This document shows, one piece after another, positions 13,984 through 18,707 of a DNA stretch of 64,000 nt. Each line of letters starts with the position of its first letter. The first letter of the stretch is position 1. Below the pieces are notes generated by a model. That model saw nothing but the letters and a program-made list of their open reading frames with translations. It searched no databases and was not told the origin of the DNA. The stretch is from Escherichia coli (lineage in GTDB: Bacteria > Pseudomonadota > Gammaproteobacteria > Enterobacterales > Enterobacteriaceae). Made by a program: the position numbers and the translations under genes. Location of the stretch: NCBI RefSeq assembly GCF_003334335.1, contig NZ_QOWQ01000030.1; one strand, given 5' to 3'.

Positions 13984-15681
13984 TCAAAGCAATAACGTAG
14001 CCTGTGAGGCGACTGGGGTGCGTTGGTTAGGAATGTAAAACGCAATTTCCGTCCCCGGCTCCAGGCGGCGGATATGCAGCCCCTCGCCATACAATAACTT
14101 CACGCGATGATGGACATTCAGCAGGCCAATTTTATTGCCCGGCATTTCATTCGCTTCGACCCGCTCAATCACCTTTGGATCGATGCCGTGCCCGGTATCT
14201 CGCACCGCAATGCGTACCCGATTTCCGCACTCTGCAACGCTGATGGTGACAACGCCTTTACCTTTGCAAGGCTGAATACCGTGGACAATGGCGTTCTCCA
14301 CCAACGGCTGGATCAGCAGGCTGGGAATGCAGCAATTCACCTCTTCATCAATATCATAGATAACCGTCAGCTTGTCACCAAAGCGGGCCTGCTCAATGGC
14401 AATATAGTCTTTAATTTGATACAGCTCTTTTTTGATATCGATTTGCTCATCGTCTTTTAATTCAATGTTATAGCGCAGATAACGCGACAGATTAAAGATC
14501 AACTGGCGAGCGGTATCCGGATTCAGACGGATTGACGATGAAATAGCGTTCAGAGCGTTAAACAGAAAATGGGGATTAATTTTGCTTTGCAGGGCGCGAA
14601 GCTCTGCCTTATTTGCCATTTCACGTAGCTGCTCGGCGCGTGAAACCTCCAGTTGCGTGGAGATGATTTGCGACAGACCGACCGCCATTTCCTGTAATGA
14701 CGAGGTGATCTGATGCGCGTGGCAGTAGTAAATTTTCAGCGTTCCGGTCACGACCCCTTTCTCCCACAATGGGATCACCAGCATGGAATGAATCTCTGGT
14801 GTGCGGTGGGCTTCATCATTGTTTTTAATGATGATTTTTCCGTAATTCATCGCCTGACGGGTAGTCGGGCTAATGAAGTCATCGCCATTCTGATAGTTAT
14901 GTTCACCCACGCCAACATAGGCCAGCACATGATCGGTATTAGTAATCGCCACCGCATCGGCGTGAATGTCATCGCGGATAATTTCGCAGACCTTGCGTAA
15001 TGACTCGCTATTGACATGGCGAAACAGCGGTAGCGTTTTGTTGGCGATATCCAGCGCCAGCTTGGCCTGCCGCGCGGCGCTGGCCTCTTTTTCGCCCTCA
15101 ACGCTTTGCACCAGAAGCACAATAAAGCCGATACAGACGCTACCGAGGATCATTGGAATGCCGATTTTAGAGACGATATCGATCCCCAACGCGGTAGTTG
15201 GTGCCCAGACAATTACCAGAATCATGGTCAACGTCTCACACAACATGCCGCCGAGAATACCGACGCGCCAGCGCTGTGCTTTGGGGATTTTCAGGTTGAT
15301 CCAGCCCGATATACAACCCGCCAGAATGCTGGTGATAAAGCAGGGGATCGCCGTCACGCCGCCGATATCAATTAAATACCGGTGAATACCCGCAATCACG
15401 CCGGTAATGATGCCTACCCACGGGCCAAACAGAATCCCGCCGGACATCACCGCGATAATACGTACGTTCACCAGCGAGCCTTCTACGGGAACGCCGGACC
15501 AGGTGCTGAACAGGGCGAACAGCGAGAAAATGGCGGTAACGGCGAGCAATTCTTTTGGGGAGTGCGCCGACTTGTGCAACAGTTCGCGAAACAGGCGGAT
15601 ACGGATGAGAAAGAACAGGCAGATAAGCATTAACGCTGCCCGATCGAAGACCGCCAGCAGCATGTTGAATATTTCGTGCAC
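13984..15681 (-). CDS. ypdA: Sensor histidine kinase YpdA (LytS-type 5TM sensor, GAF, HisKA/HATPase)
   Basis: 565-aa ORF with an N-terminal multi-pass membrane domain and C-terminal kinase motifs; the stop overlaps the ypdB 5' end. Confidence 0.88.
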
Positions 15682-16056
15682 GGGTGACTCTGAATAAGGA
15701 TTAAACCTCTATGATAGGTAACCTGAAGGCTGATGACCAGCAGGCCGTTTTTGAGGAAAAACCACAATTTTAAAAGGGGATTGATAGATAAATGGTGTAT
15801 TAGCAATGCATCTCTTGATAATGCACTTCTGGTTAGTAAATTTATTGAAATTATTATGTTAATAAAATGAGTGGTAATTTTCTTGTTAGCGCAGATAAAT
15901 TTCCTGTTTTTAAAGCAGAGTTCCTCATTTAACGTCATTAATAAAATGTTCTAAAACGCTGGACAGACAGAAATTAATCAGGCTATTTTCAAAACAGCCA
16001 CCATCGTGGCAGCGTCGCTCGGACGGTCCGGGCGCTAACGTTAATCTGAGGAAATT

Positions 16057-17295
16057 ATGGCTGACACTCGCCCTGAACGTCGCTTTACGCGCATTGATCG
16101 TCTCCCGCCCTACGTTTTTAACATCACCGCTGAACTGAAAATGGCTGCGCGTCGGCGCGGCGAAGATATTATCGATTTCAGCATGGGTAACCCGGACGGT
16201 GCGACTCCGCCGCATATCGTCGAAAAATTATGTACTGTGGCCCAGCGCCCGGACACGCATGGTTACTCCACTTCACGCGGCATTCCGCGGTTACGTCGCG
16301 CCATTTCCCGCTGGTATCAGGATCGCTACGACGTTGAAATCGACCCGGAATCAGAAGCCATCGTCACTATTGGTTCGAAAGAGGGCCTGGCGCATCTGAT
16401 GCTGGCGACGCTGGATCATGGTGACACGGTGCTGGTGCCGAATCCAAGTTACCCGATCCATATTTATGGCGCGGTGATTGCCGGGGCGCAGGTACGCTCA
16501 GTGCCGCTGGTGGAAGGTGTCGATTTCTTCAACGAACTGGAGCGAGCCATTCGTGAAAGTTATCCGAAACCGAAGATGATGATCCTCGGCTTCCCGTCAA
16601 ACCCAACCGCGCAATGCGTGGAACTGGAGTTCTTCGAAAAAGTAGTGGCGCTGGCGAAACGCTACGATGTGCTGGTGGTCCATGACCTGGCCTATGCCGA
16701 TATCGTCTACGATGGCTGGAAAGCGCCGTCAATTATGCAGGTACCGGGTGCACGCGATGTGGCAGTCGAGTTCTTTACGCTGTCGAAAAGCTACAACATG
16801 GCGGGCTGGCGTATCGGCTTTATGGTTGGCAACAAAACGCTGGTCAGCGCCCTGGCTCGTATTAAAAGCTATCACGATTACGGCACCTTTACGCCGTTGC
16901 AGGTGGCGGCGATTGCGGCGCTGGAGGGCGATCAACAGTGCGTGCGCGACATTGCCGAACAGTACAAACGCCGCCGTGATGTATTGGTTAAAGGGCTGCA
17001 TGAAGCGGGCTGGATGGTTGAAATGCCGAAGGCTTCGATGTATGTCTGGGCGAAAATCCCGGAACCATATGCGGCCATGGGATCGCTGGAATTTGCCAAG
17101 AAGCTCCTTAACGAAGCGAAGGTTTGTGTCTCGCCGGGGATTGGCTTTGGCGACTATGGTGATACGCATGTTCGCTTTGCACTGATTGAAAACCGCGACC
17201 GTATTCGTCAGGCCATCAGAGGGATTAAAGCGATGTTCCGTGCCGACGGTTTACTACCCGCCAGCAGCAAACATATTCACGAAAACGCGGAATAA
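16057..17295 (+). CDS. alaC: Glutamate-pyruvate aminotransferase AlaC (PLP-dependent class I aminotransferase)
   Basis: 412-aa ORF; aminotransferase fold with the PLP-lysine region ([14 protein letters not shown]). Confidence 0.9.
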
Positions 17296-17314
17296 ACACC
17301 GTCGTCAGAAATGC

Positions 17315-17345
17315 AAACAGGAGCCTGATGGCTCCTGTTTTTCAT
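17315..17345 (+). terminator. Rho-independent terminator after alaC
   Basis: aaacaggagcc-tgat-ggctcctgttt stem-loop followed by a T run. Confidence 0.7.
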
Positions 17346-17359
17346 TGCACAGTTTGCTT

Positions 17360-17431
17360 TTAGATCATCAGGGCAAAAGTACCGGCCCAAACGATGACCA
17401 TAAAAGAAATGCCCATAAAGAAATATTTCAC
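17360..17431 (-). CDS. ypdK: Small membrane protein YpdK (23 aa)
   Basis: GTG-initiated mini-ORF encoding VKYFFMGISFMVIVWAGTFALMI; codons checked by hand; convergent with and abutting the alaC terminator. Confidence 0.6.
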   Translation of the reverse strand: MKYFFMGISFMVIVWAGTFALMI

Positions 17432-17786
17432 TTTACATCTCTCCGCGTAATTACTGTTACGCCTGAATGACTTCATTACACCTGATACAGTGAGTTGACA
17501 CCGGGCAAAGCGACCTTAAAAGCCCTGTATTTTACCGTGGGCATCACCCCAGAATTCTGAGCTAAACTGCTCGAGACGGCGCTAATGTACGCCTAAAACT
17601 GAAACGAGACAAGAGGCATTTTCTTATTTACTTTTAGTAACTTACAAGTGTCTCATATCGGCGACAGTTTAATTTCTGACGGTAATAATTAGATATTCAG
17701 CGAAGGAAAAAACCTTAAGAAAAAAGCCATAAAAACCATGAGGTTATTATGGCCGATTTGAGGAGGGAAAGAGTAAGAGCAGTTTG

Positions 17787-18707
17787 TTAAATGTACAACG
17801 ACGATTCTCCCACCGGGCGCGTTTTAAAGCGACGGTGGATCCAGAGGTACTGCTCCGGTGCGCGCATGATCTCTTTCTCGATAATCTTGTTCATATAGGC
17901 AGCGGCTTGATTTTCATCTGTCGGGTAGCCTTCCATCTCTGGGGTGATGAACAAACGATATCCGCTGTAATCCGCTTTTCTTACCATCGTTACGGTCAAC
18001 ATGGCTGCGCCAGAGAGACGGGAGAGAACATAGGTGCCATTGGTTGTGGCGACATTTTCCACCGCAAAGAACGGCGCGAAGGAGCTGCCTTTACGACCAT
18101 AATCCTGATCGGGAGCAAACCATACCGCTTCACCTTTCTTCAGTGCACCGACAATGCCGCGCAGATTATTTCTGCCGATCATCGCTTTGTTAGAGCGCAT
18201 GCGCCCACGGGTCTGCACCCATTCCATCAGCTGATTATTATGTGGACGATAGGTAGCCATCATTGGTTGGCACAGTCCCATCACGCGGCCGCCCAGTTCC
18301 AGCGACATAAAATGGACGCCGACAACCATTACGCCGCGATTTTGCATTTGTGCGCGTTTAAGGTTATCCAACCCTTCAACATCAAACCATTTACGTACGC
18401 GACTGTCGGGCCAGAACCATGCCATGCCGGTTTCTACCAGCGCCATGCCGAGTGAACGAAAGTTTTCGGCAATCATCTTCTCGCGTTCTTCCGCAGAATG
18501 CTGCGGGAAACAAAGTTCCAGGTTTTTACGGGCGATAGATTCACGACGTTTCAGGAATGGTCGCGCCATTGCGCCAATACGCGTGCCGAGAAAGCAGAGA
18601 ACAGGATAAGGAAGCTGTACCCAAAGCCAGAGTACACCAAGCCCAAACCATGTGAGCCAGTAGCGAGGATGTAGAAACTCGCGGGAAAATTTGCATTGTG
18701 GAAACAT
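17787..18707 (-). CDS. lpxP: Lipid A palmitoleoyl-ACP acyltransferase LpxP (cold-induced LpxL paralogue)
   Basis: ORF 17787..18773 trimmed to the ATG at 18707 (MFPQCKFSREFLHPRYWLTWFGLG...), 306 aa; HtrB/LpxL-family lauroyl/palmitoleoyl acyltransferase. Confidence 0.88.
   Translation of the reverse strand: MFPQCKFSREFLHPRYWLTWFGLGVLWLWVQLPYPVLCFLGTRIGAMARPFLKRRESIARKNLELCFPQHSAEEREKMIAENFRSLGMALVETGMAWFWPDSRVRKWFDVEGLDNLKRAQMQNRGVMVVGVHFMSLELGGRVMGLCQPMMATYRPHNNQLMEWVQTRGRMRSNKAMIGRNNLRGIVGALKKGEAVWFAPDQDYGRKGSSFAPFFAVENVATTNGTYVLSRLSGAAMLTVTMVRKADYSGYRLFITPEMEGYPTDENQAAAYMNKIIEKEIMRAPEQYLWIHRRFKTRPVGESSLYI

Follow-up and report, generated by a model that had tools for sequence, protein, structure and literature searches.

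Small membrane proteins and the YpdK family

Characterised single-helix membrane-protein regulators of Escherichia coli include AcrZ, MgtS, MgrB, CydX, and KdpF, which are paired with AcrB, MgtA, PhoQ, CydAB, and KdpABC, respectively. YpdK is like these proteins in several ways: it is shorter than 50 amino acids, has one transmembrane helix, is encoded on the chromosome, is kept in enterobacteria, and has a helix face whose small or polar residues are conserved. However, YpdK has no sequence similarity to AcrZ, MgtS, MgrB, CydX, or KdpF. Moreover, CydX and KdpF are co-transcribed with their partners, whereas YpdK is not co-transcribed with a candidate partner. In this work we compared the ypdK locus of E. 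coli with its orthologs in other enteric bacteria, and we describe a putative promoter, a folded leader RNA, and a terminator that it probably has in common with alaC.

We analysed a stretch of 64,000 nucleotides from E. coli (contig NZ_QOWQ01000030.1 of assembly GCF_003334335.1), which we call the window and to which all coordinates refer unless stated otherwise. At positions 17360-17431 on the minus strand, the sequence reads as an open reading frame of 23 codons (GTG AAA TAT ... ATC TAA) with the product VKYFFMGISFMVIVWAGTFALMI. The start codon GTG is at 17431-17429 and the stop codon TAA at 17362-17360, and the translated peptide, (f)MKYFFMGISFMVIVWAGTFALMI, consists of one hydrophobic helix. 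The RefSeq coding sequence "ypdK: membrane protein YpdK" has identical coordinates. In RefSeq, lpxP lies upstream of it on the same strand, separated by a gap of 355 nt, and alaC is convergent with it. Thus the name ypdK, the GTG start, and the peptide given in the initial annotation were all correct. The convergence with alaC that it described was borne out by both the sequence and RefSeq, and its single hydrophobic helix agrees with a GRAVY of 1.73 over the peptide. Its end point for the feature, 17431, is that of the reading frame; its other boundary, 17315, belongs to the alaC terminator hairpin, whose 5' edge it marks, and the low-coordinate end of the reading frame is 17360.

The peptide matched the NCBIfam equivalog profile NF033437 (YpdK) with 57.5 bits and an E-value of 9.4e-16, and residues 1-23 aligned to profile positions 1-23; the profile has 23 positions and a curated cutoff of 30 bits. 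A query of 701 nt around ypdK matched 5,423 of 5,426 complete E. coli genomes with at least 95% identity, and the number of these genomes with ypdK annotated is likewise 5,423. The exact peptide sequence was found on at least 1000 contigs and is called "membrane protein YpdK" by several sources. The feature is therefore the known and annotated E. coli gene ypdK (b4680), rediscovered here. It is the founding member of the YpdK family, with the same sequence, coordinates, GTG start, and place between lpxP and alaC. According to PMC3009722, the 18 small membrane proteins that Hemm et al. described in 2008 (Mol Microbiol 70:1487) include YpdK, and the gene appears as b4680 under "previously known sORFs" in Table S3 of PMC10746267. 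None of the papers or Rfam families that we searched describes a promoter, leader helices, or a common terminator of ypdK.

Conservation of the reading frame

The surrounding 5 kb is overlapped by 82 open reading frames of at least 20 aa, so a frame of 23 codons is by itself not beyond chance. The evidence for ypdK that goes beyond chance is comparative, and as read from the aligned sequences it lies in synteny, in the pattern of variation by codon position, and in pN/pS. We surveyed 81 loci, namely 80 loci of different species that were reached through an AlaC homologue and one E. coli RefSeq locus. A YpdK ortholog was found directly after alaC and on the opposite strand in 75 of them, in genera including Escherichia, Citrobacter, Salmonella, Enterobacter, Kluyvera, Cedecea, Buttiauxella, Pantoea, Erwinia, Mixta, and Serratia. 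The gene thus occurs in the Enterobacteriaceae, the Erwiniaceae, and Serratia, and it is convergent with alaC throughout. The six loci without an ortholog in place comprise one contig end, one locus in which the gene is displaced (by 1.7 kb in Buttiauxella brennerae), and four true absences (Erwinia endophytica, Symbiopectobacterium, Lonsdalea, and a record labelled Pseudomonas).

All 75 orthologs start with GTG. The ratio pN/pS was 0.275 in frame, and the shifted frames gave 1.25 and 2.1; among 68 distinct nucleotide sequences the entropy summed by codon position was 13.3, 4.3, and 26.1 for the first, second, and third positions, so that most of the variation falls at third positions. Residues Y3, M6, G7, S9, G17, T18, and F19 are invariant, and K2, W15, L21, and M22 are nearly so. 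In 33 of the 75 loci, the GTG is preceded within three codons by an in-frame stop codon, which leaves the GTG as the only universal start. A 38-residue extension beginning at an ATG at 17476 was considered as an alternative start and rejected; this upstream ATG is present only in Escherichia. On this comparative pattern, ypdK is a protein-coding gene under purifying selection, and its start is the GTG codon.

The sequence before the start codon is also conserved. In E. coli, a Shine-Dalgarno sequence, GGAGAG, lies at 17439..17444 on the minus strand, 7 nt upstream of the GTG, and the spacer between the two contains an out-of-frame ATG-TAA. Nearly all 75 loci have GCGGAG (AGGAG or GGGAG in the Erwiniaceae and Serratia) at a distance of 7-10 nt before the GTG, and CGGAG is invariant in an alignment of 45 sequences.

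A putative promoter upstream of ypdK

The initial annotation had reported no obvious promoter in 17432..17786. For the E. coli sequence taken alone this holds, since a sigma-70 consensus scan of the gap between lpxP and ypdK returned no site on the minus strand. However, a comparative alignment of the orthologous loci points to a promoter at 17584..17612 on the minus strand, with a -35 hexamer TTGTCT at 17612-17607, a spacer of 17 nt, and a -10 hexamer TACATT at 17589-17584. This site matches the consensus at 8 of 12 positions in E. coli and falls below the threshold of the scan, which is why it was missed both by the scan and by eye.

A block GTAnATTAG is almost invariant upstream of ypdK, and its distance to the GTG differs by species from 49 to 196 nt. 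The -10 hexamer within it reads TAnATT in 73 of the 75 loci (TACATT in 55, TAAATT in 12, TAGATT in five, and TATATT in one), with variation only at the third position, which is what one would expect of a -10 element. The hexamer located 17 nt upstream is TTGTCA-like in the Enterobacteriaceae and TTTATT in the Erwiniaceae, and the pair was present in 73 of the 75 loci. Transcription would start at 17577 (± 2 nt) on the minus strand, 7 nt downstream of the -10 hexamer. A strand-specific tiling array of MG1655 recorded a transcript at 2494795-2494997 on the plus strand of that genome, overlapping ypdK at 2494943-2495014 (PMC3009722, File S3). This transcript begins 148 nt upstream of the GTG, and the intergenic resolution of the array was down to 7 nt (PMC3009722). 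Its boundary corresponds to position 17579 of the window, 2 nt from the predicted start. TACATT was assigned as the -10 hexamer because of its fixed 17-nt spacing to TTGnnn, its variable distance to the GTG, and this array boundary. A first reading, in which GTACATTAG with its flanking GGCG/CGCC formed an RNA hairpin and TCTCTATAATCAG served as the promoter, was rejected. The TATAAT-like block is not accompanied by a consistent -35 hexamer, and it falls within the ypdK transcript.

Several elements around the two hexamers are also conserved. The discriminator in E. coli is GC-rich, AGCGCC(G), and 59 of 73 loci have GCGC or GCCCC at this place. An A/T-rich tract, TTACTAAAAGTAAATAAGAAAATGCCTC, precedes the -35 hexamer at 17613..17640 on the minus strand; it is kept as a block in the Enterobacteriaceae, resembles an UP element, and may act as one. 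The arrangement recalls the ribosomal promoter rrnB P1, whose sequence we verified upstream of a 16S rRNA gene; promoters of this type are under the control of growth rate and of the stringent response. A GCGCC discriminator and an upstream A/T-rich tract are common to both promoters, and the -35 context of rrnB P1, CCTCTTGTCA, is identical in the ypdK promoter of several genera, while E. coli ypdK has CCTCTTGTCT. On the other hand, rrnB P1 has a spacer of 16 nt and TATAAT, whereas the ypdK promoter has a spacer of 17 nt and TACATT. Furthermore, unlike in promoters of the rrn P1 type, the tract upstream of ypdK does not match the UP-element consensus. The likeness to rrnB P1 is therefore one in how the ypdK promoter may work and does not make it a member of the class, and control of ypdK by growth rate or the stringent response is a hypothesis.

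Farther upstream, about 70-90 nt before the predicted start, a palindrome CTGTCG-N8-(C/G)GACAC at 17648..17667 on the minus strand is kept in the Enterobacteriaceae whatever the upstream neighbour gene is. It may be a regulator site, or it may be the -35 region of a divergent promoter on the plus strand; the consensus scan found a promoter-like site GCGACA-17-AATAAT on that strand at 17661-17689. A search by eye upstream of E. coli ypdK found no convincing site for CRP, LexA, CpxR, or RcsB. In the Erwiniaceae and Serratia, a CRP-like motif TGTGA-N6-TCTCA/ACACA is located upstream of the -35 hexamer.

The alternative closest at hand is that ypdK lacks its own promoter and owes its expression to read-through from lpxP. 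The two genes are on the same strand and 355 nt apart, and the empty minus-strand scan of the gap would fit such an arrangement. However, lpxP is followed by a strong hairpin and a U-run at 17725-17754 (z = -3.7), and the array transcript begins at 17579 and not in lpxP (PMC3009722). Moreover, the upstream neighbour gene varies among genera: lpxP holds this place only in Escherichia, some Citrobacter, Salmonella, and Enterobacter, while the -35/-10 pair stays with ypdK in 73 of the 75 loci. Since the promoter travels with ypdK and lpxP has its own terminator, read-through is not needed for ypdK expression, and we consider this explanation improbable; some minor read-through may still reach ypdK. 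Thus, the alignment and the array boundary favour a weak sigma-70 promoter at 17584-17612 that probably belongs to ypdK itself.

A conserved folded leader RNA

With the predicted start, the 5' UTR of ypdK would be about 146 nt long in E. coli; across the loci its median length is 145 nt and its range 36-183 nt. RNAalifold on 45 Enterobacteriaceae leaders gave two helices, H2 and H4. Helix H2 (17492..17550, minus strand) is long-range; its two paired arms are GGGGTGATGCC (17550-17540) and GGTGTCAACTC (17502-17492), which read GGGGUGAUGCC and GGUGUCAACUC as RNA. In alignment A1 (columns 39-48 with 93-102), 94.5% of the cells of H2 were paired and five of the nine pairs showed compensatory changes (for example AU 20/UG 12/UA 9, and CG 35/UA 8). 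H2 encloses a variable insert, H3, which is deleted in a second Escherichia lineage. Helix H4 (17445..17462, minus strand) has the sequence GCGTAA-CAGTAA-TTACGC; it is a hairpin, and its 3' arm runs right up to the Shine-Dalgarno sequence. Here 86% of the cells were paired (columns 135-141 with 149-155), compensatory changes were seen in five of seven pairs (for example GC 33/AU 7/GU 5, and UA 33/UG 7/CG 5), and the fold had a z-score of -2.8.

When the two helices were slightly extended and taken together, 90.8% of the cells were paired compared with 28-51% in slid controls, and 10 of the 16 pairs had compensatory changes. The covariation score of H2 and H4 was 0.403, against 0.240 for shuffled alignments, and none of 500 shuffles reached the observed value. 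G-U pairs are abundant in these helices, which places the leader RNA on the ypdK (minus) strand.

The remaining structure of the leader is less uniform. A 5'-proximal hairpin, H1 (17556..17576, minus strand; TCT-C-GAGC ... GCTC-AGA), has counterparts at the same position in most species with differing sequences, and its folding z-score is not significant (median -0.45 in the Enterobacteriaceae). The Erwiniaceae equivalent of H1 covaries (UA 9/CG 4/AU 1, CG 11/AU 3/GC 1, and AU 11/GC 4). Conserved single-stranded blocks of the leader include CAGAATTCTGAG and TCTATAATCAG, and a conserved GAUG lies between the Shine-Dalgarno sequence and the GUG. Two pairings that might account for this GAUG were examined. 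The first, of a 5' CGUC with GAUG, had 79.9% of its cells paired and showed no sign of covariation, since 52-70 of 500 shuffles came up to the observed values. For the second, UUCAUU with GAUGAA, a register that retains five of the six pairs and adds one had 65% of its cells paired against 31-52% in other registers.

No Rfam 15 family matched the leader, either in the segment 15600-19100 of the E. coli window or in 14 other loci or genera. The sole Rfam hit in that segment was a chance-level plastid motif (E = 0.22), and the L013 leader had no Rfam match at an E-value of 1 or less. The small RNA Tpke70 was considered as a possible ypdK transcript and rejected, since its published sequence maps to 17723-18158 on the plus strand, antisense to the 3' end of lpxP.

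A terminator between alaC and ypdK

Bidirectional terminators between convergent genes consist of a single GC-rich hairpin that is flanked by an A-tract and, at its opposite end, a T-tract, and the hairpin between alaC and ypdK is of the same kind. It extends over 17315..17346 and was detected on both strands, with a stem of 11 bp (17315-17325 with 17330-17340) that reads AAACAGGAGCC-TGAT-GGCTCCTGTTT at 17315-17340. Its tails are UUUUUCAUU on the plus strand and UUUGCAUUUCU, an interrupted U-run, on the minus strand. Read on the plus strand, the hairpin folds with -22.1 kcal/mol (z = -3.5); for the minus strand the values are -24.2 kcal/mol and z = -4.5. Nearly every locus with a short spacer has a single GC-rich hairpin between the convergent stop codons, the median spacer being 54 nt, and many genera show A7 and T7 placed symmetrically on its two sides.

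The gap of 15 bp that had been reported between the reading frame and the terminator is about right: counted from the last paired base the distance is 19 nt, and with the T-run included it is 15-17 nt. The reading frame had been described as abutting the alaC terminator. The adjacency stands, while the assignment to alaC alone does not, since the hairpin folds on both strands and in many genera has A7/T7 flanks, which point to its use by both genes. We infer that the alaC hairpin is a bidirectional intrinsic terminator common to alaC (plus strand) and ypdK (minus strand). In E. coli K-12 the U-tract on the ypdK side is interrupted, as UUUGCAUUUCU, and termination in that direction may be weaker.

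Expression of ypdK and possible restraint of its translation

Ribosome occupancy, which had been proposed as a check on the reading frame, is present and low: in nine Ribo-seq libraries ypdK gave 1.6-14 RPKM (PMC10746267). In the same study, ypdK mRNA was at 17-175 RPKM and the translation efficiency was 0.03-0.37 (PMC10746267). At pH 5.8 compared with pH 7.6, the mRNA changed by log2 +1.55 (adjusted p 0.003), ribosome occupancy by log2 -0.27, and translation efficiency by log2 -2.6 (adjusted p 0.088) (PMC10746267, Tables S3 and S8). The rise in mRNA without more ribosome occupancy hints at post-transcriptional control of ypdK. The low translation efficiency and the uncoupling at pH 5.8 fit a restraint of translation by the leader, and stabilisation of the mRNA is equally possible.

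Type I toxins such as tisB, shoB, zorO, and dinQ have a long structured 5' UTR, and type I toxins are typically patchy and multicopy in distribution. One could therefore regard ypdK as a toxin-like module of this type, in which a hydrophobic peptide is kept untranslated by a structured 5' UTR and is possibly induced by DNA damage. YpdK is indeed hydrophobic and has 23 residues, the leader of about 146 nt carries conserved helices near the ribosome-binding site, and the translation efficiency is low, at 0.03-0.37 (PMC10746267). In addition, the ypdK transcript rises about two-fold after UV (log2 +1.06; PMC3009722). However, ypdK is a single-copy gene of the core genome with fixed synteny and is under strong purifying selection in three families. 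No antisense RNA partner was found, as Rfam was blank on both strands and Tpke70 lies over lpxP and not over ypdK, though an unannotated antisense RNA may exist. Moreover, no LexA box was seen by eye in the promoter and leader, and PADLOC gave no match. A toxin-like role is thus highly improbable.

We give hardly any credence to a reading in which the conserved element is mainly an RNA (a non-coding or dual-function small RNA, or an antisense RNA to the 3' end of alaC) and the reading frame is incidental or secondary: the covarying leader, its single-stranded blocks CAGAATTCTGAG and TCTATAATCAG, and the mRNA increase at pH 5.8 (log2 +1.55, adjusted p 0.003, against -0.27 for Ribo-seq; PMC10746267) would suit it, but the coding signature is present in frame only, the start codon, the Shine-Dalgarno sequence, and the residues named above are invariant, and the frame carries ribosome footprints. 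A purely non-coding role of the locus is very unlikely, and the leader may have an additional RNA role besides the coding one.

Possible function of YpdK

YpdK fits the small single-helix membrane proteins of up to 50 residues, since it has 23 residues and one hydrophobic stretch of membrane-spanning length. The GRAVY rises from 1.73 for the whole peptide to 2.15 for residues 4-23, and the only charge is K2. Since this sole charge is an N-terminal lysine, the positive-inside rule suggests that the N-terminus is inside and the C-terminus outside. The small and aromatic residues among the invariant ones point to helix-helix packing. Searches with YpdK against PDB, PADLOC, and PHROGs gave no match, and none of the papers that we searched reports a phenotype. 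A tagged product and the membrane localisation of YpdK were reportedly described by Hemm and colleagues.

By analogy with the characterised regulators, our best guess is that YpdK would assist or regulate a larger inner-membrane protein as its transmembrane partner. The gene ypdA (pyrS), which encodes a sensor kinase, adjoins alaC on the side away from ypdK in 64 of the 81 loci. None of the four loci with a true absence of ypdK has ypdA, and in 13 loci ypdK is present with no ypdA nearby. This co-occurrence is confounded by phylogeny.

The expression and action of YpdK may then be pictured as follows. Transcription would begin at the weak sigma-70 promoter TTGTCT-17-TACATT, with an A/T-rich tract upstream and a GC-rich discriminator, and the leader RNA would fold into at least two conserved helices, one of them abutting the Shine-Dalgarno sequence. 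The leader helices and the GUG start would keep translation low, possibly in an adjustable manner, and transcription would end at the hairpin that also terminates alaC. The product would be a single-pass inner-membrane peptide with its N-terminal lysine in the cytoplasm. Its invariant face (Y3, M6-G7, S9, W15, and G17-T18-F19) would most likely pack against transmembrane helices that belong to a larger protein of the inner membrane, and this packing would modulate the activity or stability of that protein. By genomic context, the best candidates for such a partner would belong to the pyruvate/alanine node, namely the ypdA/pyrS sensor kinase or a transporter. Taken together, ypdK is very probably a genuine and independently expressed gene with its own promoter, a folded leader, and a common terminator, whose product would act as a transmembrane partner.

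A bolder version of this picture is possible, and we put it forward only tentatively as rather doubtful. In this version, the leader would be an unrecognised cis-regulatory RNA that gates YpdK translation, the rrn-P1-like promoter would respond to growth rate or to the stringent response, the GUG codon would be part of the control, and YpdK would act on the pyruvate/alanine node. There it might modulate, for example, the sensor kinase or a transporter, its own gene always lying beside this node (ypdA/pyrS - alaC - ypdK). Apart from the conserved, covarying leader, which is uncatalogued, and the invariant GUG, no aspect of the ypdK locus is even mildly surprising.

With 23-24 residues, a GUG start, and a place next to alaC in three families, YpdK is among the most conserved enteric micropeptides, and this conservation across three families argues for a real role in the cell. 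The putative promoter, the predicted transcription start, the two covarying leader helices, and the probable common terminator provide testable parts for assigning a function to YpdK.

Gene order around ypdK

The arrangement of ypdA, alaC and ypdK (window 13984-17431), in which ypdA is divergent from alaC and ypdK (17360-17431, minus strand) is convergent with it, was maintained from Escherichia to Pantoea and Serratia among 81 loci (L001-L081), of which 80 were gathered through the AlaC homologue and one was an E. coli RefSeq locus. The ypdA gene was present in 64 of the 81 loci. Unlike this arrangement, the proximity of lpxP was restricted, and lpxP neighbours ypdK only in a few genera.

At the lpxP end, a predicted intrinsic terminator lies on the minus strand at 17725-17754, with the hairpin GGCCAUAAUAACCUCAUGGUUUUUAUGGCU followed by UUUUUCUU (z −3.7); the U-run extends to about 17717. 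It went undetected in the consensus scan. Tpke70, an sRNA annotated in E. coli (436 nt; sequence taken from the Supplementary Data of PMC6172242), mapped to 17723-18158 on the plus strand. It is antisense to the lpxP 3′ end, its 5′ end lies within the lpxP terminator, and in this mapping it overlapped neither ypdK nor the ypdK leader.

Elements upstream of the ypdK promoter

A conserved palindrome, CTGTCG-N8-GACAC, is located within 17648-17689 (both strands), 5′ of the predicted ypdK promoter. It coincides with a promoter-like site on the plus strand (GCGACA-17-AATAAT) directed toward lpxP and Tpke70, and it was also kept in loci where the neighbouring gene is not lpxP. The palindrome could be a candidate regulator site or a candidate divergent promoter. 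In Erwiniaceae and Serratia (within L055-L081, e.g., L062, L058, L075, and L072), a CRP-like site, TGTGA-N6-TCTCA/ACACA, lies 5′ of the ypdK promoter, with approximately 11 nt between it and the −35 hexamer; the Enterobacteriaceae loci were without a CRP-like site upstream of this promoter.

The ypdK leader and start region

Compared with L001 (window ~17503-17539), the ypdK leader is shorter by about 33 nt in L002, a locus from a second lineage of Escherichia. The missing segment is the insert enclosed by H2, the long-range leader helix that pairs 17550-17540 with 17502-17492, and in E. coli K-12 this insert has diverged from the GAGAtAATTCTCAtTTT form found in most genera. Most Enterobacteriaceae retain a GATG in the spacer that separates the Shine-Dalgarno sequence from the GTG start; the base pairings tested for this GATG do not account for its conservation. 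In E. coli the spacer contains ATG-TAA (17432-17438, minus strand), a start codon followed at once by a stop and out of frame with ypdK.

Expression, insertions and possible loss

The ypdK mRNA increased approximately 2.9-fold at pH 5.8 relative to pH 7.6 with ribosome footprints unchanged (PMC10746267), and the transcript increased approximately twofold after UV (PMC3009722). In E. coli NCTC9040 (L083), the alaC and ypdK stop codons are separated by an IS1A insertion that lies in or beside the predicted shared terminator (17315-17346). An O26:H11 strain was reported to carry a Stx2a prophage in its "mlaA-ypdK intergenic region" (PMC6667211). The Erwinia endophytica locus (L067) has no ypdK ORF downstream of alaC. 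Since a TAAATT promoter-like remnant (GGGTAAATTGGG) persists there without the ORF, this suggests that ypdK was lost recently in this locus.
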